A DNA stretch of 64,000 nucleotides from positions 65,970,001 to 66,034,000 of the forward strand of contig CM059432.1 in assembly GCA_030390025.1 (NCBI GenBank). Reading direction: 5' to 3'. Below, piece after piece: positions 10,338 to 64,000 of the stretch (within the stretch, counting starts at the first letter, position 1; each line of letters starts with the position of its first letter). The position numbers were made by a program, and so were the translations under genes. This DNA comes from Squalus acanthias. Its lineage: Eukaryota. The notes under the pieces are model-generated. The model searched no databases. It was given only the letters and a program-made list of their open reading frames with translations, and was not told the origin of the DNA.

Positions 10338-10478
10338 TCACACCTGGATACCCTTTACTGCTTGTTTTATGCTTTCCAGAAGGGCCTTGCTTTCGGGGGT
10401 GTAATTCCTCTCCAAACTGCTGTACATGTCAGTCAGAGTGTTCACATACAAATCAAAATTCTGTTCGCTGATTGGCTC
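10338..10478 (-). CDS. ST18: ST18-like last coding exon: [46 protein letters not shown]
   Basis: 141 nt, AG acceptor, TGA at 10338-10340. Family C-terminal motif. Confidence 0.93.
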
Positions 10479-17500: not shown

Positions 17501-17644
17501 CATTTGTGGGAGTTGGATGTCAGCGAGGCTGTTAATAAGGGCCTGACTCAGGCCAGCTAATTCCTTTAACAAACTCTCATTGTGCTGCTCAATTAGTTTA
17601 TTCTCCTCCTCAATTGTTTTCAAATTGCTCTCCATGGAAGTAAT
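17501..17644 (-). CDS. ST18: ST18-like exon: [48 protein letters not shown]
   Basis: 144 nt, AG acceptor and gtaaga donor. Close to the ST18 C-terminus as I recall it. Confidence 0.93.
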
Positions 17645-18048: not shown

Positions 18049-18152
18049 CTGTGTCTGGAGTTTTATCATATCTGCTTCCATTTTTAAGTTTGATTCATTC
18101 AGCTCCTTAATCTCATCATCCAAATGATTGATTTCCTCATCGTTTTCAGCTC
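18049..18152 (-). CDS. ST18: ST18-like exon: [35 protein letters not shown] (coiled coil)
   Basis: 104 nt, AG/GT ends, phase 1 to 0. Confidence 0.92.
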
Positions 18153-29835: not shown

Positions 29836-29927
29836 CGCTACTTGCCCTGAGCTTGATGGTCATCATTTCATCACCTGAAAGTTTGCCTTTCTTCAGTGCT
29901 AGGGAAGCTCGGGGACAACCTGACAAA
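29836..29927 (-). CDS. ST18: ST18-like exon: [31 protein letters not shown]
   Basis: 92 nt, acceptor ttttcag and donor gtaaga, phase 2 to 1. Confidence 0.9.
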
Positions 29928-31080: not shown

Positions 31081-31302
31081 CTTCGGTGGGTGACAAAACT
31101 GCCATTAATGTGACCAGATCCATCACAGCCTGGTGTAGGGCAGGTTGTACCTTCAGCTTTACCAGATTTCCATGGGAATTGGGAACCATTCAGAGAAGCC
31201 TCCTTTTGTCTCTTTGCGGCTAGAGGGCAACCTGATGCACTGCGATGCGATGAGTACTTGCCAGATATGTGACCCTGCCCATCACAACCTATCACTGGGC
31301 AC
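31081..31302 (-). CDS. ST18: ST18-like exon with two C2HC fingers: [25 protein letters not shown]...[20 protein letters not shown]
   Basis: 222 nt, AG/GT ends. [16 protein letters not shown] is the ST18-type variant as I recall it. Confidence 0.93.
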
Positions 31303-36687: not shown

Positions 36688-36771
36688 CTGACTAACTCTG
36701 AGTCTTCTTTGTCATCCTTACTGGGTGTCAGTTTAAATCCACCTTTTTTTGCACGTGGGCATCCAGAGAGG
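36688..36771 (-). CDS. ST18: ST18-like exon: [29 protein letters not shown]
   Basis: 84 nt, AG/GT ends, follows a 92-nt intron. Confidence 0.92.
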
Positions 36772-36863: not shown

Positions 36864-36926
36864 CTTCTGTGTGAAGCATAGTTTCCAGTCACATGACCAG
36901 AGCCATCACAACCAGGTGTTGGACAC
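36864..36926 (-). CDS. ST18: ST18-like exon: C2HC zinc finger [20 protein letters not shown]
   Basis: 63 nt, AG acceptor and gtaagt donor. Confidence 0.93.
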
Positions 36927-38914: not shown

Positions 38915-38983
38915 TTCAGTTCCTGGGAGCTGGCTGCCATAAGACTCTTAAGGCTCTTGTCAGCCAAAGGACAACCAGACACA
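38915..38983 (-). CDS. ST18: ST18-like exon: SVSGCPLADKSLKSLMAASSQELK
   Basis: 69 nt with polypyrimidine tract, AG and gtatgc donor. Completes the preceding finger. Confidence 0.92.
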
Positions 38984-41042: not shown

Positions 41043-41105
41043 CTGCGGTGTGATGCGTAATTTCCAGTCACATGGCCACTACCATCACATCCTGGGGTTG
41101 GGCAA
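41043..41105 (-). CDS. ST18: ST18-like exon: C2HC zinc finger [20 protein letters not shown]
   Basis: 63 nt, AG/GT ends, phase 2-2. Canonical CCHHC finger. Confidence 0.93.
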
Positions 41106-46380: not shown

Positions 46381-46496
46381 GTTATTAGCTCCTTCTTAGA
46401 GTCTTTGCTTGGAATTTTGGACTGAGGACTTGGAATAGTAACCTCACCAGGATATCTCCTCTCTTCCATACTTTCCTCTGGGCCAACGTCTTCTTT
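46381..46496 (-). CDS. ST18: ST18-like exon: [39 protein letters not shown]
   Basis: Acceptor gatcacag and donor gtaagt, 116 nt, phase 0 to 2. [14 protein letters not shown] and KKELIT motifs. Confidence 0.9.
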
Positions 46497-48490: not shown

Positions 48491-48630
48491 GAGGGTAGCA
48501 GTATATGGGCAAATCGGCAAAGTGTGTTAACATATTGTACTTAATCTATGGTACAAGTATCCTATAAAATGGCAACAGCTTTGTTCTCCAATATATGTGG
48601 AGCACATTCTGGTGGTCTAAAAAGAAAAAA

Positions 48631-48945
48631 AGACTTGGATTTATATAGTGCCTTTCATGACCTCAGGACTTCGCAAAGCGCTTTACAGCCAATAAAGTAC
48701 TTTTGAAGTGTAGTCACTGTTGTAATGTAGGAAACGCAGCAGCCAATTTGCGCACAGCAAGGTCCCACAAATAGCAATGAAATAAATGACCAGATGATCT
48801 GTTTTAGGTGTTAGTTGATGGATAAATGTTGGCCAGGACACTGGAAGAACTCCCCAGCTCTTCTGCGAATAGTGCTATGGGTTCTTTTACGTTCACCTGA
48901 AAGGGCCGACAGGGCCTCGGTTTAACGCCTCATCCAAAAGACAAA
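48631..48945 (-). mobile_element. Deu-domain SINE, 5'-truncated
   Basis: Reverse complement of the 35800-36135 core and tail. Confidence 0.78.
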
Positions 48946-49233
48946 TCCAGGTCCAGTTATTAGTGGAAATCAATCCAACCCAAATGACCAATCCAAACCT
49001 GATACAATTTGGCAATCTCACTGTGACATATCAAAAATAAGGAGAAGAGAAAAACTTTCTCCCTTATCTTATTTCAATGAAAAGTAGATATTTGCATAAA
49101 ATGTAGAACTCTGCTTTATACTCATGTTTACATTCTTGCTAAGTAAACAGAGGAATATACACCCCCAGAATGTAATTCCTCTGTCAAATTCTATGCATTG
49201 ATGTATGACCTTGTAACTACCATAGAAACACAT

Positions 49234-50069
49234 CGGGGGGAATTTAATCAATGGGAGCGCGTTGGAGGCGGGACTGCTGCTTGTCGGGTTTCAGTCCCGC
49301 CCCCAATGACGTCCGGCCAACCCATGCTATTTTCCCTTGATTGACCTTGTTAAGCCCGCCCTGCGAGCTTAGCCAGCCAATTAAGGGAAAGCCGGTGACA
49401 GAGAACGTCAGTGTATGATGTTTCATCTGTTGAAAATTTTTGACAGATGAATTGTCATCGTTTGACAGCTTTGAGAAGCCATCAAACACTGACAATCTCT
49501 GTTCTTTGGAAAGTCCTTGTACTCAAGACTCAACAAACCTCTTTCCTGAGCAGAAATCAGATGGCTGTTGCATCGGAGAATGCAGCAGCCATTCTGCCAT
49601 CTCTGCCGTGGAGATGCGGGAGTCTCCAGTTCCCCAAGGGTTGAAGCCTGCAGGAGGAAACAAAGGTAAGGAAACTTTTTCTAACACTTTTCACTCACCT
49701 CTCCACACTTGCACCCATCACTCACCTCCACAGCGCACTTTTCGAACCCTCTGACGCCTGCAGACCCACTTTGCTTGCGTCGCTGACCCTGGCGGGGTTT
49801 CCCAACGTCGGGAAGTCCTGCACTTGTGTTGGTAAAATGGGGATAAGCCTCATACCTGCCTGTTAACTACCTGTTAACAGGCAGTTAAGTGGCTGTAATC
49901 CCCTTCCCGCCTCGAGGAGACAGGTCCCAGCGTGAGTCGGGGACCCGCCTCCTGGGAAGATGGCACGGAGGTGGGTTGGGAGCGGGTTCGGTACCCGCTC
50001 CCAGTTTCTGCCATTTTCCCGGCAGTCCTGCCTCCAAACCCGCCTCCCCAAGGCTGGCAAAATTCCCCC
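49234..50069. mobile_element. Harbinger-type non-autonomous element
   Basis: Ends ggggggaattt and aaattccccc, probable CAT TSD. Confidence 0.65.
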
Positions 50070-50075
50070 CATGAA

Positions 50076-50840
50076 GTCAGAATTTACTGTAACCGGTGAA
50101 TGAATGGCACCTGCTATTCGTTCGACTTGCCTTTGCACATTTAATTTCCAGGAGCTTTTGCACAGCAAGTTGCTGCAAGTGGAATGGCGCAGCGCATTCT
50201 ACAGGCGATCTGGAACCTGTGTGAACAGGGCAAGCAACTGTGTACCTTTAACCAATCAGATTGAAGAATCGTTAATGAAAAGCGCAGAGTCCGAACCAGG
50301 AAGTGTAAGTTAGAATATTTAATTCAATGTCAAATCAAGTACAGAAAGCAAAATAAACAAAGAGAAAGAAAGATTGGATTATGAGAGAAAAAAGCAACAG
50401 AAAGAAGTAAAACACATTTTTTTATCTAATTAAAAAAAAAATCTCCAACAACAATTAAAAGTTCAAGGACTGAGACTCCACACTTGTAAAAGTGAATTTT
50501 CTGTGCTAGAGAGGTTGCTTGGCAGTAATTAAGACTTATCATGCTGTGGAAAAGGGTACTTAGACGGAAATGGACAAGCGCTAACTTTCTATGGTGAGTT
50601 TAGTCCATACCTACGACATAAGTACAGGAACTTCACGTTGTACAATACATTTGAATGGGCAGCCAGATGGCGAGATGCTGTTTTGCGCAGCTTACGGAGG
50701 AGCGGTGCATCTCGGACAGCACTTACGGATTTTCGCGTTTAACTGCGCATCTGTGTTCACCTGAAGTTGCTGTCCGATTTGTGCATAAATAATAGTGAGC
50801 TCCGTTAGCCTTACCATTATCTTTACAATAAATTCTGTCC
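50076..50840. mobile_element. Non-autonomous TIR element
   Basis: Ends gtcagaatttactgtaa and ttacaataaattctgtcc. Confidence 0.55.
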
Positions 50841-51201
50841 CAACATACTACAATTTAATCTGATATGCAAATATATATATTTTTTAAAATGGTAATTCTG
50901 CGATCCAGCACTTCGAGTGGGAAGTAGTAGTCACAGGGAAACTGGGAAAATGAATAGATGGAACGTAATGGACTGCAGCCGCAATTTCCAGACTTGGATC
51001 CCTACATACACCACTCTCTGCTGGGAGCAACAGATCACAGAATCACCACAAAAATCCTTTGCTTTCCCAACCCAGGCTTTCATAGCAAAGGATATTTCTG
51101 TTAATAGTTAAAATTTAGTTGACACAAAAGTGGCCAACCACGGCAACTCACATTTATATACGGCCTACATAAATTATCAAAAAGAAATCCTTCTGAGTTA
51201 C

Positions 51202-51439
51202 CTCTTTCTCCTCTTCCTTGTGTATCTGTGCTTTAGTGTAGTTGACAGGTGCATCCCATCCTTCTTGTTCACACAGCGCTTGGTAGTACTGAGGAGTTAT
51301 CAAGATACTGTTTAGGTATGAGGGAGAAGATTCCTGGTGTAGTTACTGCAGAACTGACAGTGGCGACTTTGTCCCGGTTTCTATTCTTGTTCATGCTTAA
51401 ATCAAGCGTTCCATTTTCATCCACTTCTATGTCTGTGTT
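51202..51439 (-). CDS. ST18: ST18-like exon with internal +1 frameshift: NTDIEVDENGTLDLSM...VTTP / ESSPSYLNSILITPQYYQALCEQEGWDAPVNYTK...EEEKE
   Basis: The conserved IEVDENGTLDLSM and QALCEQEGWD motifs lie in different frames. The exon is 238 nt (3n+1) between phase-0 neighbours. In-frame TGA at 51269-51271. Confidence 0.88.
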
Positions 51440-52157
51440 CTGTGTTAAAAGATGCCTACAACTGTCATTATTTGTCATATATATGTGATCTACTGTACTT
51501 ATTAAAGGGGTTGCATTACTTTGAAGATTATTTTGCAGAAGATCAATTGGCAGTGTGGTGTTGTAGCTTTTGCCTGTTGCTTCAGATGCAAATGTAATCC
51601 AGTAACTCCAGCTGATGACCAGCTCTGTCAAATCTCAAAGATTGGAGAAAATCTTTCATCCTTTAATAAAGCTCTAAAAATAATTATTTTTGCAGTAGGT
51701 TCTGGAAAGACCCAAGAAGTAATGTAGGCGATTGGAAAGAGTTATTTGATGTAAAATAAATATTTACCACAAATGTGATGCAGTAAAAATGGAGTTTACG
51801 GCTACAAGCCACACTGACAGTAATGTACACAACACAAATAATTGTTTCATAGCACACTCAGGAGAAAAAAATGGCTGTGTTTCAAAGATTGACTCTGTAT
51901 GGGCAATGTGGAAATAGTCTGCGGCTGAAAGTTAATGGGTAATTTTTGCAAGAGAAAACTTCATCAGGTCAGATTGAGGGCATTTGGCAGTCATGGAGTC
52001 TGCTTAATTTTTACAATTATGATGTTAGTAGTTTTGTAAATACATTTTCACGTGTTGAGAAAAAAAGAGCCATAACAGTTGCTTTTAGTTTTCCGAACAT
52101 GATTTGAAAAGGCACTTATTCCAATGGTTTACACTTTGTTTTTCTCTGGATGACATC

Positions 52158-52560
52158 TAACAACAACAACAACTTGTATTTATATAGCGCCTTTAACTTA
52201 GTAAAATGTCCCAAGGTGCTTCGCAGAATGTTATCAAATAAATTATGACACTGAGCCACATAAGGTGGTATTAGGGTAGATGGCCAAAAGCTTGGTCAAA
52301 GAGGTAGGTTTTAAGGAGCGTCTTAAAGGAGGAGAGTTAGAGAGGCGGAGAGGTTTACGGAGGGAATTCCAGAGCTTAGGGCCTCAGCTGCTGAAGGCAC
52401 AGCCGCCAATGGTGGCGTGATTAAAATCGGGGATGTGCAAGAGGCCAGAATTGGAGGAGCGCATGATATTTCGGAGGGCTGGAGGAGGTTACAGAGATAG
52501 CAAGGGACAAGGCCATGAAGGGATTTGAAAACAAGGATGAGAATTTTAAAATCGAGGGTT
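52158..52560 (-). mobile_element. L2 LINE 3' fragment
   Basis: (AAC)n tail and reverse complement of ~7490-7905. Confidence 0.85.
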
Positions 52561-55405
52561 GCTTTACCTGGAAGTTACTGTGTGGGCTGTTATTGCATGA
52601 AATATTTAACAGACTCGTATCAAATTTTTCTCTGCGCTGTTTCAACCGAAGCATTACTCATTTAAAGAAACATAATTTGTAGACTCTAGTGAATTTTTCA
52701 AAAACATAATTTTGGAAATTACAATGGGCTTGTTGATCCTGCAGCGTGTTGAATACCTAGATGACACCACCCCTTTAATAATACTGGGGTCTTTGGCAGC
52801 ATTTTCCCACTTCTTCATAATTATTCTTTTCCAAAATTCAGTGTGGTGGTACCTTTGATTGGAACAGGGAGGGCTCTCCCTGTAGAGGATGTTGCCCTTA
52901 GGTTATGCTCCAGTAGATGGCACAACTCCTGCTCAATCATAGATGGTGAAGGCAGATCTCTTCCAACATGCCCAAGTAGTTGTGCCTAGATCTTGTCATG
53001 GAAGTCCTGCATCACCTACAGCTGGGCACCAGATATCTGAAGTTCAATCCCACCTGCCTTTCCTCCCTTTGCAGGAATTCCTTTTCCTCCTTCACTGTCA
53101 GAACAGCCATTGATGGGTCTAATGAAATGCCCATGCAATGTCCTTACAGCTGCGGATGGCAACTGCGGCAGCAAGAATGGTGCTGCTGAAGATGCACACA
53201 AAAGGAATGCTGAATTGCAGAGAAACAGCAGCAAGCAGCAGGAAAAAAGCGCACCAGCTATAACGTACAATGTTCTCTGTGGCAAATCAAAAACAGCTAT
53301 CAAAATGCAAGTCTCACAAATATGGCAACCTAGGTTTAAGTGGTGGAGTTCTGGTTCAAATTGCTTAGAGATCGCCCAGCACCTATTTTATACATACACT
53401 AAGCGAATAATGCGTTGCCCTGCAGAGTAGCATCGGACATTCATCATGAAACTGATTTTCCCATTCATAAATACTTTTGTAGCATGTGATGGGACATGCA
53501 CACGCATGTAGCGTGGTCTCAAAAACTCTTCTCCCATGATTTCGGGAGATCAGTGCCAATTACGCTGAGGCATACATTCCCAAATCCGCAGGTCTCGCCC
53601 ACTCCGGGTGGGGGACTGCTCTCCTAGCGCGACATCAGGGAATCACCCCTTTGATACATTCTATACCGTGCTCTCACTGTGCACTGTAACAAGAAGTTTC
53701 TTACTTTTTACATCTGATTAATGAGTCATTTAAATAAAAACTATCTAAAATATCCCACCATCTTTACTGAGAATATTACAAAGCACAACTTTTTTTTCCA
53801 GGGCTGAGTTAAAGCAGTAGTTTGAATGTGCAGCAACAACGTATTTGATTATAAATGATAAATAACCTCCAGCAAGAGTTGATCATCAGTCACAGCCATT
53901 GGGTTACATCTGCATCTGAAGTGACAGGTAAGGCCTGTAACACAATGTTACCAATTCATATTCTGTTCAGATGAAAAATGGGTTGCATCAATTTTTGTTG
54001 GCACAAAAAGAATCAGACTTCTTAGCTCATGTCCTTATAACTTTTGTCGTGGAATGGCTTAAATTGGTGCGATAATTTTTAAGGACATCCATTTACCTCT
54101 CCCAGCCCAACACTCCAATCAATGCTGTATAAGACACTTGGGTGGTGAGATTGGTCTTCGCCAGTAGAGGAAAATGTGCGACAGTGAATCAGCAGCCCGT
54201 TTTACACCACTCCTGATTTCCGTTGCCCTTACTGCCTTTGGAAAAGAATATTGGGCGGGGTGTAAAACAGGCTGTTGATTCGCTAGCACACATTTTGTGC
54301 TATCTTCAAAGACCAATTTCACCCGCTGCACTTTTCCACTCCCCAGGTCTCTGAACAGCTCAATGTTGAGCATTTAGTAAATTAGCAAGATTGAAAAATT
54401 GAATGAGTGCTACATAAGACTTATGTTTTGTGCAGCTCTGATTATCTTCTCAATTGCTGTCCTCACTAAATGCAGTAAAGGAACATTTCCTTTATAGAAC
54501 AATTCTTAGTAACTTTTTTATGGGATGGGGAGAAGAATTGGAAAAGCTATGCACCATTTTTGACATAATATGCATTTTGATATGATTTGAACATATGTCA
54601 GAAAGCACAGAATGAGTAAAACACATCAAACCTTGCCCTTCCACAGATCATATATAATAACCCAATTTTATGGATTCTACCTAGGAAGAAGTTGCACGTA
54701 ATTTTTTCTTCATCCTTCAAGATAATGAAATAAAACTCAAGAGCCTGGATATAAGTGTTGGTGTTATTAGCAAATAAACACTTAAAACATTCATATGGCA
54801 TACCTCTGTTTGGTATTTTAACGGAGGTGTTAATTCATTTTAAATAAAAATAGCGGACAAAGATATGTCATATATTTGTGTTAAGCATTCTTCCTACAAT
54901 ACTACCAACAGCAATTTCCAGTTCCAGATATTTCATCCATCCCCACCTTTCCACTATTCTGCTGCCCTTCCCTTCCCCCAGCCCCAACAGAACATGAACC
55001 ACCATGTCTCATGTTTATCAACCTTATCACACATGGTCTAGATATCCTGCACATTCATAGTCAATGAACCAAACACTTAACCCAGAGGTTTATAAAGAAA
55101 TAAAAAATACAAATGCATTTTCATTAAGACGGTGCCACTTTAACATTCCAGTCTGTTTTCTTATCTTAGTGCTTGGACTTGCTTTGTTTGCTGATTATTT
55201 CACTGGGTAAAAAGCCAATCATTTGCAATCCAACAGCTCAAATGAAGTTGAATAATATCAGTTCCATTTGTATGAATGAAGCATAGGATACTCTGAAGGT
55301 GGTTGTGGTATCTAGATGTTCATTTCCTACCTCAGAAACCTTTTAGTTTTACACTTTTCAGTGATAATTTGAGTGCAACCCACTGTTTTGTACATACTAT
55401 CTCAC

Positions 55406-55608
55406 CTTAGTTGACAAATCTTGCGGCTTTGTGGAGAGGTTCTGTGGCATCTCTCTACAGCGTGTGGATAGGTTGAGGATAGCTGCAGCTGCTATGTGAG
55501 TGGCTTCAGTATCATGACTGTAACTGTAGACACTGGAATGGCATGGGCTTTGTACAGAGGCACTAGACAGTCGGCTGCAGGAAGTCACTGGACTTGAAAA
55601 GTGTTTGG
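55406..55608 (-). CDS. ST18: ST18-like exon: SKHFSSPV...[32 protein letters not shown] (MYT1 domain)
   Basis: AG/GT ends, 203 nt, phase 1 to 0. [12 protein letters not shown] motif. Confidence 0.9.
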
Positions 55609-58419: not shown

Positions 58420-58628
58420 ATTCACAAAATTGAACAGCTTCCCATTCTTGAACTTTTGATGTTACTGTGTGCTTTCCAAATACTTGTGCATCAAAGCTAG
58501 CATAATCAAAGGGAGCCTTAGTATATTTGTCCAGTTCTTTTGATATGTTGGTATGGGATGCGCTGATTGGCTGTGTGGGTCCATAGCTGAACTGAGCAAT
58601 CTCCATTTGTTTCACCAGACACATTGGC
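58420..58628 (-). CDS. ST18: ST18-like exon (first in window; upstream exons lie beyond 64000): RPMCLVKQ...FDYASFDAQVFGK...FCE
   Basis: Acceptor tttctgtag and donor gtaagt. FDYASFDAQVFGK is a MYT1/ST18 family motif. Ends in phase 1. Confidence 0.88.
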
Positions 58629-59396: not shown

Positions 59397-60403
59397 TAAG
59401 AACATAAAAACATAAGAATTAAGAGCAGGAGTAGGCCATACAGCCCCTCGAGCCTGCTCCGCCATTCAATAAGATCATGGCTGATCTTCGACCTCAACTC
59501 CACTTTCCTGCCCGATCCCCATATCCCTTGATTCCTCCAGAGTCCAAAAATCTATCTATCTCAGCTTTGAATATACTCAAAGACTCAGCATCCACAGCCC
59601 TTAAGGTCGAGAATTCCAAAGATTCACAACCCTCTGAGTGAAGAAATTCCTCCTCATCTCAGTCTTAAAAGGTCAACCCCTTATTCTGAGACTATGCCCC
59701 CTAGTTCTAGACACTCCAGCCAGGGGAAACAACCTCTCAGCAACTACCCTGTCAATCCCCTCAGAATCTTGTATGTTTCAATGAGATCACCTCTCATTCT
59801 TCTAAAATCCAGAGAGTATAGAGCCAATCTACTCAAACTCTCCTCATAGGACAACCCTCTCACCCCAGGAATCAATCTAGTGAACCTTTGTTGCACCGCC
59901 TCTAAGGCAAGTATATCTTTCCTCAGATAAGGAGACCAAAACTGCACGCAGTACTCCAGGTGTGGTCTCACCAAAGCCCAGTACAATTGTAGCAAGACTC
60001 CCTTACTCTTGCACTCCAACCCCCTTGCAATAAAGGTTAACATGCCATTTACCTTCCTGATTGCTTGCTGTACCTGCATGCTAACTCTCTGTGCTTCCTG
60101 TACGAGGACACCTATATCTCTCTGAACAGCAACATTTAATAGTTTCTCACTATTTAAAAAATATTCTGTTTTTTCTATTCTACCTGCCAAAGTGAATAAC
60201 CTCATATTTCCCCACATTATACTCCATCTGCCACCTTATTGCCCACTTACTTAACCTTTGCAGGCTCTTTGTCTCCACCTCACAGCTTACTTTCCCACCT
60301 AGCTTTGTATCGACAGCAAACTTCAATACATTGCACTTGGACCTTTCATCCAAATCAATAATATAGATTGTAAATAGCTGAGGCCCCAACACTGATCCTT
60401 GCA
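59397..60403 (-). mobile_element. CR1 LINE 3' fragment
   Basis: QGSVLGPQLF and RPHLEYCVQFWSP motifs, with antisense tail repeats cataagaa. Confidence 0.9.
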
Positions 60404-63400
60404 GCATCTGAGTCGGCAGCAGAGGAGGCGGTAGCAGAGGATGAAGAGCGCGAGACCCGAGGACAGCGGACCTGGAAGGAATCGGCATCTGAGGAGGCAG
60501 CAGCAGAGGATGAAGAACGCGGGACCCGAGGACAGCGGACCTGGAAGGAATCGGCATCTGAGGAGGAGACACAAATCCGCCGAATTCCAAAAGAACAGCA
60601 AAAGCAAGGAGTGATGTCACAGGACTGCAGGTAGGTGATTGGTGGGTGAGTATTAGCGTTTTATTCTCTCTAAGGTAACTCGATAAACTAACTAATATAA
60701 CTATAAATAATCATGTGAATAAAGACTTTAAGAGAGCGAGAGAAGCGGCCGGAGATAAAGGTAGGCCCGACTTTTAAGACTCTCAGGGCTAGAAATTCCG
60801 TAGCGCCCCGTTTGGGGCGATAACTTTTGAAATCTCGGAAAAGTATCGCCAGGCGATAATCATTTTCTGGTCCCGGGAAATTGAGCTTTAACGCTCCAAG
60901 AGGGAAGTGGAGCGCTAAATCAAGCGCTAACCACTTCTCTTAGGGCGCTAAAGTGTGAGAGCGGGGCGGTAGCGGCAGAGCGCTGAACAATGTGGAGTGC
61001 AAAGATACCGGCATTGGAGGCTGCTCCCCTCGCTTAAAGGGAAGGGCCAATGATGGTGCACAACATACTTCTGCTCAGTTCTGTGTTGCCAGGCGACCTG
61101 CGCGACTGCCATTACAGCCCCAAACGCTCTCAGAGAGTGGAGGGCTTGGACATCTCGCAGCAATAAAGCATCGAAAACTTTCAGCAGACACCAGACTGGT
61201 GCAAAGAATAAAGTTTGGTCTACCTGAAAACCATTGCTTTTAATTAGCGCTCCCCAAGAGGCCAGCTGTGGTGACAACGCCACCTCTTCCTGCTGGCGTC
61301 ACTGCAGTGCATCCGTGAGGCTGAGAGATACGTGGATAGCATGTTTCAGGAGGTGGTCACCCCACAGCGTAAGAGTGTGCAGGCAGAGACGGAATGGCTG
61401 ACCGTCAGACAGACAAGGAGGACCAGACAGACAGAGCAGGAGTCCCCTGAGTGCATCTCGCTCTCCAACCAGTATTCACTGGTGAGGACGATGGTTCCTC
61501 TGGAGAGTACAGCCAGAGCCAAGTCCACGGCACCACGGGTGGCTCAGCCGTATGGGGGGAGGAGGAGGAAGATTGGAAAGGCAATAGTGGTAGGGATTCG
61601 ATAGTTAGGGGAACCAACAGGCGTTTCTGCGGCCACAGACGTGATTCCAGGATGGTATGTTACCTCCCTGGTGCCAGGGTCAAAGATGTCACTGAGTGGC
61701 TGCAGAACATTCTGAGGGGGGAAGAGTGAACAGCCAGAGGTTGTGGTCCATATCGGTACCAACGACATAGGTAGAAAGAGGGATGAGGTCCTGCAGGCAG
61801 ATTTCAGGGAGCAAGGAAAGAGAGTAAAAAGCAGGACCTCAAAGGTAGTAATCTCTGGATTACTCCCAGTGCCACACGCGAGTGTTTATAGAAATAGGAG
61901 GATAGAGCAGCTGAATGCGTGGCTGGAGAGATGGTGCAGGAGGGAGGGCTTCAGATTCCTGGGGCATTGGGGCTGGTTCTGGGGGAGGTGGGACCTGTAC
62001 AGGCCAGACGGGTTGCACCTCAACAGAGCCGGTACCAATATCCTTGCGGGGAGGTTTGCTAGTGCTGTTGGGGAAGGTTTAAATTAAGTTGGCAGGGGAA
62101 TGGGCACCAGGATGCAGCATTAGAAAGGAGAAACGAAAGGCACAAAGGATTGTGAGAGACGGATAGCACTAAAATAATAAATAGTAAGGTATTAGGTGGG
62201 GTCAGACTAAGAGAGAACGCAGGATATTCTAAGATAGGTTTACAGTGTATATATGTGAACGCACGAAGCATAGTAAACAAGGTTGGAGAGTTGCAGACGC
62301 AAATAGCCACATGGGAATATGATGTTGTGGCAATAATGGAGACCTGGCTAAAAAAAGGGCAGGATTGGGTATTAAATATTCCTGGATATAAGGTGTTCAG
62401 GAAAGATAAGGAAGGAAAGATAGGAGGTGGTGTGGCATTACTGGTTACGGAGAATGTTACAGTGCTGGAGAAAGAGGATGTCCTGGAGGGGTCAAGGACA
62501 GAATCTATATGGCTAGAGTTAAGAAATAATAGAGGTGCCATTACACTACTAGGTGTATTCAATAGGCCACCAACTAGTGGTAAAAATATGGAGGAGCAAA
62601 TTTGCAGAGAAATTACAGAGAGATGCAAGAACTATAGAGTAGTGATAATGGGGGACTTCAACTATCCTAACATAGACTGGGATAGTAATAGTGTAAAGGG
62701 CAGAAAGGGGGAAGAATTTCTGTAGTATGTTCAGGAGAACTTTCTGGATCAGTATGTTTCTGGCCCAATGAGGAAAGAGGCATTGCTGGATCTGGTTCTG
62801 GGGAATGAGATAGGTCAAGTGGAGCAAGTGTCAATAGGTGAACATTTAGGGAACAGTGATCATAGTATCATAAGGTTTGGATTAGCTATGGAAAAGAACA
62901 GGGAGCAATCTAGAGTAAAAATATTTAATTGGAGGAAGGCAAATTTCAGTGGGATGAGAACAGATCTGGCCTGGGTAAATTGGAATCAAAGATTGGCAGG
63001 CAAAACTGTAATGCCTTTAAAAAGGAAATAGTTTGGGTACAATCCCACTAGGGGGAAAGGTAGGGCAACTAAAGTCAGAGCTCCCTGGATGACGAATGAG
63101 ATAGAGAGTAAGATGGAGCAGTAAAAGAGCACGTATGACAGATGTCAAGTCGAGAATAAATCTGAGAATCAGGCTAAATATAGAAAGTTCAGAGGAGAAG
63201 TGAAAAAAAAATAAGTGGGGCAAAGAGAGGGTATGAGAATAGAATGGCAGCTAACATAAAAGGTAATCCAAAAGTCTTCTATAGGCATATAAATAGTAAA
63301 CGGGTAGTAAGAGGAGGGGTGGGGCTGATAAGGGACCAAAAAGGAGACCTATGCATGGAGGCAGAAGGTATGGCTGAGGTGCTAAATGAGTACTTTGCAT

Positions 63401-64000
63401 CTGTCTTTACCAAGGAAAAAGAAGCTACCATAGACAGAGTGAAGGAGGAAGTAGAGCAGATACAGGATGGGATAAAAATTGATAAAGAGGAGGTATTAGA
63501 AAGGCTGGCTGTACTTAAAGTAGATAAGTCACCAGGACCAGATGGGATGCATCCTAGGACGCTGAGGGAAATGAAGGAAGAAATTGTGGAGGTACTGGCC
63601 ATAATCTTCCAATCCTCCCTAGAAATGGGGGTGGTGTCAGAGGACTGGAGAATTGCAAATGTTACACCCTTGTTCAAAAATGGGTGTAAAGATAAACCCA
63701 GCAACTACAGGCCAGTCAGTTTAACCTCGGTAGTGGGGAAGCTTTTCGAAAAAATAATCAAGGACAAAATTAACAGTCACTTGGACAAGTGTGGATTAAT
63801 TAAGGCAAGCCAGCACGGATTTGTTAAAGGCAAATTGTGTTTAACTAACTTGATTGAGTTTTTTGATGAGGTAACAGAGAGGGTTGATGAGGGCAATGTG
63901 GTTGACGTGGTGTACATAAACTTCCAAAAGGCATTTGACAATGTGCCACATAATAGGCTTGCCAGCAAAGTTGAAGCCCATGGAATAAAAGGGACAGTGG
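60404..64000 (+). mobile_element. Near full-length CR1 LINE 5' part: 5' UTR, SGNH-esterase ORF1 (~61300-62087), ORF2 endonuclease/RT running off the window; decayed
   Basis: GDSIVR, LPGA, VHIGTND and DGLHLN (ORF1). NARSI, ETW, GGGVAL, MGDFN, LDLVL and SDH (APE endonuclease). A Harbinger-type MITE fragment lies at ~60787-61300. Confidence 0.88.

Follow-up and report, generated by a model that had tools for sequence, protein, structure and literature searches.

A one-base frameshift in ST18 exon 10 of the Squalus acanthias assembly, in a gene that is otherwise intact, is very probably a consensus insertion error

Introduction

ST18 has a role in brain development and belongs with MYT1 to a family of neural zinc finger factors. 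The ST18 proteins (MYT3/NZF3) of cartilaginous fishes are the closest described relatives of the gene analysed here. The Heptranchias perlo protein XP_067831641.1 (P0029), in which six PF01530 stretches were found, is one example, and further named relatives are those of Heterodontus francisci (XP_067887928.1; P0005) and Mustelus asterias (XP_078073103.1; P0001). The MYT1 domain was described to be repressive, with SIN3B binding in MYT1 and MYT1L (PMC9307810, available part). ST18 itself has been proposed to have arisen together with myelin in the jawed vertebrates, and its loss was found to delay myelination in the mouse (accessible sections of PMC13734250).

A St18 null allele is known from the mouse. 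According to the accessible part of that study (PMC9751150), exons 9 and 10 are lost, resulting in a frameshift and a premature stop, and no protein was detectable, which was attributed to NMD and instability. The same text describes fewer pallidal projection neurons for the frameshift allele. In genome assemblies, a frameshift may also be technical: among the consensus errors of vertebrate assemblies from long reads, short frameshifting indels are described as the commonest kind (PMC8081667), and polishing leaves some frameshifted gene models (10.1101/2021.07.16.452324; both as stated in the available parts).

The DNA analysed here, called the window, is a stretch of 64,000 nucleotides (contig C8 of assembly G000, positions 65970001-66034000; genome size 3.7 Gb). 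Its ST18 gene has the six C2HC fingers and the MYT1 domain in common with the cartilaginous proteins, and differs from their models in one extra base at 51333-51334 of this assembly. As in the residual long-read errors described in the available text of both assembly papers, this is an isolated one-base indel in a conserved gene that is otherwise intact. In addition, judged by length, the extra base appears to be lacking in independent read contigs, and further conserved genes of the assembly are hit. A real insertion would resemble the mouse null in that it would cause a mid-gene frameshift and a premature stop in the full-length transcript. The mouse allele is an engineered deletion of two exons, whereas exon 10 of the window is a phase 0-0 exon that can be skipped in frame, so that the loss caused by a real insertion might be no more than partial.

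Results and Discussion

Structure and identity of the ST18 locus

Thirteen coding exons of ST18 (exons 8 to 20) were located on the minus strand of the window, and seven further exons upstream in the same assembly complete a sequence-derived model of 20 exons. The upstream part was built from 200 kb of fetched sequence, and the model starts at the conserved MDTDSEEKRL. Exons 8 (58420..58628; 209 nt), 9 (55406..55608; 203 nt, end phase 0) and 11 (46381..46496; 116 nt) are intact and enclose exon 10 (51202..51439; 238 nt as written, phase 0-0), which encodes part of the MYT1 domain. These are followed by exon 12 (41043..41105; 63 nt) with C2HC finger 3, exon 13 (38915..38983; 69 nt), exon 14 (36864..36926; 63 nt) with finger 4, exon 15 (36688..36771; 84 nt), exon 16 (31081..31302; 222 nt) with fingers 5 and 6, exon 17 (29836..29927; 92 nt), exon 18 (18049..18152; 104 nt), exon 19 (17501..17644; 144 nt) and the last coding exon 20 (10338..10478; 141 nt including the TGA).

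All internal exons of the model have AG/GT ends and compatible phases. Neither a stop nor a shift was found in 19 of the 20 coding exons, exon 10 being the exception. The coding sequence as written is 3,181 nt in length and contains six C2HC motifs, two before exon 10 and four after it. The MYT1 domain (PF08474) was matched above the cut-off by exons 8 and 9 and by both halves of exon 10.

In the protein comparison, the named best matches were ST18 in 13 of 14 cases, the 14th being unnamed. Two further MYT-family loci, on C9 and C11, show lower identity, and their homologous exon is open in one frame. By these similarities the locus is identified as an ordinary ST18 orthologue and not as MYT1 or MYT1L. 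Neither a second ST18 copy nor an alternate haplotype was found in assembly G000, which contains one ST18 locus, and compensation by a duplicate was therefore rejected.

Some additional features were observed in the surroundings. Three stretches of C8 further upstream of the gene model (66108214-66108348, approximately 66155400-66155550 and 66236226-66236375) match the differing N-termini of the Heterodontus, Chiloscyllium and Mustelus ST18 proteins and are candidates for alternative first exons. Lone C2HC-finger matches beyond the three MYT-family loci, at C8:94474928-94475056 and C11:20349137-20349280, probably belong to other finger-bearing genes. The intron above exon 8 contains open frames at 59744-60710 and 62156-63704 of the window, which we take to resemble LINE reverse transcriptase/endonuclease fragments.

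The frameshift in exon 10

Exon 10 (51439-51202, minus strand) is flanked by AG upstream and GTAACT downstream. Its first part contains IEVDENGTLDLSM in frame 0, the exon start reading NTDIEVDENGTLDLSM, and its end, YYQALCEQEGWD...EEEKE, lies in the next frame (frame 1). In tblastn searches with the ST18 proteins of Mustelus, Heterodontus and Chiloscyllium, all three alignments switched from frame -1 at 51335 to frame -2 at 51333, leaving exactly one base unmatched. The plus strand at this site reads ...AGATTCCTGG..., with CC at 51333-51334, corresponding to GG on the coding strand. This doubled base is the site of the +1 frameshift and a likely consensus insertion. Both exon halves exceeded the Pfam MYT1 cut-off of 27 bits, with scores of 38.3 and 44.5, and they match consecutive parts of the profile (positions 129-163 and 167-208), which excludes a chance resemblance.

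In the frame as written, translation ends at a premature TGA (51269..51271, minus strand) at codon 672, and the last exon junction lies 1,024 nt further downstream. Two of the six fingers are encoded before this TGA, compared to six in the exon-skipped form. The last-junction rule is the usual basis for calling NMD targets, and by this rule the ST18 transcript as written is predicted to be one.

These results bear out the preliminary description of the locus. The 238 nt between phase-0 junctions were confirmed from the splice ends and the 20-exon model, the different frames of the N- and C-terminal motifs from translation and the tblastn switch, and the coordinates of the extra base (cc at 51333-51334) from the break at 51335/51333. 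The stop was correctly placed before the four downstream fingers, and the remaining 12 window exons were rightly called undamaged, as seen from their AG/GT ends, phases and lack of stops.

Conservation in cartilaginous fishes

The comparison with other shark orthologues, to which the preliminary description had pointed, included the ST18 proteins of 22 cartilaginous fish species. In 19 of these species, the corresponding exon encodes 79 aa (237 nt), and the models of the remaining three lack exon 10 altogether. A shifted tail like that of the window was found in none of the ST18 models of the 22 species. Exon 10 of the window equals P0029 at 78 of 79 positions, each half in its own frame. Compared to Mustelus, 35 of 39 and 43 of 44 residues of the two halves are identical, and the splice sites are canonical.

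The identity to Heterodontus ST18 was 588/650 (90.5%) before the break and 349/361 (96.7%) after it. For eight other species, the values against the same protein range between 79 and 88% before and between 91 and 97% after the break. When the window ST18 was compared to 10 cartilaginous proteins, identities of 80-90% (before) and 93-98% (after) were obtained. Since the identity is equal to or above that of the other species, there is no sign of decay. Several lesions or relaxed conservation would characterize a unitary pseudogene; here, one lesion was found in 20 exons and the identity to orthologues is undiminished. Judged by sequence, the ST18 gene is not a decaying pseudogene. Among the titles listed in a literature search, with subscription journals mostly outside its reach, no report dealt with shark ST18 in connection with a pseudogene or frameshift.

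Read contigs from independent samples

For the sampled words, 24 sequencing runs were listed, of which five, from two samples (S1 and S2), represent one organism (organism A). For organism A, 34 of the 37 sampled words were present (0.92). Contigs of three of these five runs (X1, X2 and X4) and of one run of a second organism (organism B) were aligned to positions 48500-54000. Organism A is nearly the same as the window, most of its unique contigs deviating by 0-2 letters, and organism B has 44 other letters in 1,386. From the near-identity of organism A, which includes the introns, we infer that it is the species of the assembly.

Between 50764 and 52184, the contigs of X1 (S1) and X2 (S2) represent 1,421 window bases as 1,420 letters, and for X4 (S2) 1,420 window bases (50764-52183) are represented as 1,419 letters. 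Over the exon 10 stretch, each of the three shows one gap and one or two other letters. All three aligned runs of organism A, and both samples, are one base short where the protein alignment needs one base fewer. The gap is bracketed only to these 1.4 kb as a whole, in a 5.5 kb alignment that contains repeats. The stretch of 1,421 bases has 11 homopolymer runs of at least five bases. In X2, another one-base gap was found in the adjoining contig (50687-50792), which means that indels relative to the window arise outside the exon too.

Two calculations bear on the position of the gap. The likelihood of the word share of 34/37 was 0.22 for a substitution only and 0.13 for a substitution plus an indel, which speaks weakly against a gap in the exon and cannot separate the two cases. 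The length match, on a rough judgement, gives a factor of 3-4 in favour of a gap in the exon, in addition to a strong prior. Read contigs lose rare alleles, and the samples are not linked to the assembled animal. With both organism-A samples one base short over the 1.4 kb to which the gap is bracketed, the contigs point to an insertion that is not fixed in the species.

At position 51319 (plus strand), 14 bases from the extra base, the window has a T and a C was found in four of four runs from organisms A and B. This difference is synonymous (TCA versus TCG) and affects a CpG; no second contig was found over this position in X1, X2 or X4. The window also differs from both organisms alike at 52565 (four of four runs) and at 50185 (three covering runs). 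At each of the three positions, the window has either a private variant of the assembled animal or a substitution error.

The search for a short contig-derived protein that passes through the site and has the intron flanks of Squalus acanthias gave no candidate, the proteins found being 32-104 aa in length and uninformative. One protein, P0011, reads through the site, and its exon part resembles skate models and not Squalus acanthias.

Frame breaks in conserved control genes

The control set consisted of large spans from three families (9 Frizzled, 29 Connexin and 17 IRK_C), resulting in a total of 55 genes or exons with 35,570 Pfam-matched bases. Five multi-exon Frizzled pieces (SMO-like, second exons), one partial connexin on C12 and 10 short IRK_C pieces were omitted from the rate. 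Frame breaks were identified in two of the 55 (FZD8 and a GJD2-like connexin), and the 17 IRK_C spans, which are counted in the rate, contained none. In FZD8 (L034; C4, approximately 150145710), the single exon carries a +1 shift from a doubled T after the TVPATIVVA codons (...GTG GCC T TGC...), likely another consensus error. In the GJD2-like connexin (L035; C28, 13995382-13996117), the +1 shift is located within the cytoplasmic loop.

A third break lies beyond the counted span, in a Frizzled gene on C25 (L043; approximately 32661460), where one base is missing in a T run within the cysteine-rich domain (HLRLF/LCSLY). This gene is closest to the FZD9/10 group, its nearest solved relative is FZD4, and it is presumably FZD9. 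Two of the six single-exon Frizzled genes that were fully read are broken. On C12, a connexin-like match (L036; 4853941-4854204) spans profile positions 140-224 only, and the first half of this gene was not found in the 3 kb fetched.

The counted break rate was 0.056 per kb (95% 0.007-0.20), which corresponds to about one break in every 18 kb of coding sequence. For 3,180 nt, the length of ST18, the probability of at least one break is 0.16 (95% range 0.02-0.48). The assembly therefore has a background of comparable breaks in conserved genes besides ST18. Since several such genes are unlikely to be truly broken in one animal, we infer that the control breaks are probably errors.

Exon skipping and a possible cassette exon

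Exon 10 has the symmetric phase and the open frame upon skipping that characterize a cassette exon: computed on the model, the transcript without this phase 0-0 exon retains an open frame of 981 aa with all six fingers. The earlier proposal that skipping keeps the frame therefore holds, and it also agrees with annotated models of other species. The sole ST18 models found for Carcharodon, Rhincodon and Hemiscyllium (P0049, P0050 and P0051) connect exon 9 directly with exon 11, and the Stegostoma isoform P0030 enters the exon at YYQALC. An internal acceptor, CTCCTCAG/TACTAC (51289/51288, minus strand), is located downstream of the extra base in the window and is an entry point in common with P0030. 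Its use would give a candidate short exon 10 (51202..51288) of 87 nt, which is in frame.

A crude motif rule showed the TLDLS part of the exon to be absent from 19 of 68 MYT1L-like models and from 4 of 70 ST18-like ones; these counts are from automatic models among the best 120 of 644 matches, 38 without the second anchor being excluded. The homologous MYT1L exon is missing in models of several frogs and of a pheasant (e.g., P0056 and P0109). This pattern suggests that the MYT1 repressor domain contains a family-wide, possibly ancient cassette exon. Since the models are automatic and represent the best 120 of 644 matches, the cassette exon is suggested rather than demonstrated, and the skips in the models could be annotation artefacts. 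The sequencing-run word search recorded no RNA runs for the exon 10 sequence, and among the titles listed in a literature search mostly without subscription journals, none concerned the skipping of this exon, whether for ST18 or for MYT1L.

Because the exon is skipped in annotated models, a real insertion need not be null. Skipping reduces the cost of a real insertion, without making one likely.

Origin of the extra base

The surplus base in exon 10 is very probably a consensus insertion error of the assembly. The frameshift is most likely absent from the animal and reflects an ordinary sequencing error, not a gene loss. The assembly consensus would have doubled one base in exon 10, and polishing would have missed it. 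The base lacking in the organism-A contigs would then be the one at 51333-51334, and the CpG difference at 51319 may, with less confidence, be a true variant beside which polishing failed. Given a consensus error, a normal ST18 protein with all six fingers is likely made in the animal. The shorter contigs and the other broken genes support the order given in the preliminary description, in which an assembly or consensus indel came first and a recent loss-of-function allele second.

It is unlikely that the base represents a real, recent insertion allele of the sequenced animal, probably heterozygous and on a haplotype that also carries the T at 51319. Under this explanation, full-length transcripts would be degraded by NMD, and exon-skipped or short-exon transcripts, for which in-frame routes are available, would survive. 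The two window-private differences (51319 and 51333-51334) are maybe 14 bases apart, and one rare haplotype would suffice for both; neither organism-A sample has the T at 51319, however, and both are one base short. A rare allele might be lost from contigs whose samples are not linked to the assembled animal, and a recent origin would leave the other exons undecayed, as seen. These points are weighed against the frameshift background of the assembly, which is sufficient alone. It is rare for an individual animal to carry a null allele of a particular conserved regulator. In the mouse, according to the accessible part of PMC9751150, a frameshift allele yielded embryos that are St18-null in the whole animal, which is compatible with a real insertion allele. 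The extended version, in which the allele segregates and is tolerated since exon 10 is an ancient MYT1-family cassette, ST18 being locked in its short form, is decidedly unlikely.

It is very unlikely that the insertion is fixed and that ST18 survives only in an isoform which skips or shortens the exon and lacks part of the MYT1 repressor domain. The 981-aa form with all six fingers would permit it, as would the sole models of Carcharodon, Rhincodon and Hemiscyllium without the exon, the internal acceptor used in Stegostoma and the 19 of 68 MYT1L-like models (best 120 of 644 matches) in which the homologous exon is absent. Both organism-A samples are one base short, however, and the exon halves remain near-identical to relatives (35/39 and 43/44 to Mustelus), with canonical splice sites.

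That a real base is removed during expression, by an intra-exon intron (exitron), ribosomal frameshifting or RNA editing, is hardly conceivable and was rejected: introns from a GT at 51358 or 51346 to the AG at 51289 (70 or 58 nt) can be drawn and 21 GT..AG pairs of length 3n+1 leave an open frame, but that many pairs are expected by chance, each deletes residues conserved in 19 species, no orthologue model has such a deletion, and the contigs are one base short already in the DNA.

Implications for ST18 and the MYT1 family

If the extra base is a consensus error, as preferred here, it serves as a warning only: the assembly breaks conserved single-copy genes at about one per 18 kb, with a wide interval, and 'gene losses' called from single indels in it therefore have to be backed by reads. 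A real base would mean that ST18 is naturally knocked out in a shark, partially or fully, which would be relevant to the proposed origin of ST18 together with myelin. If the cassette reading is true, inclusion of exon 10 would add part of the MYT1 repressor domain and skipping would remove it, and a real allele that locks ST18 in its short form would provide a natural test of the function of this domain.
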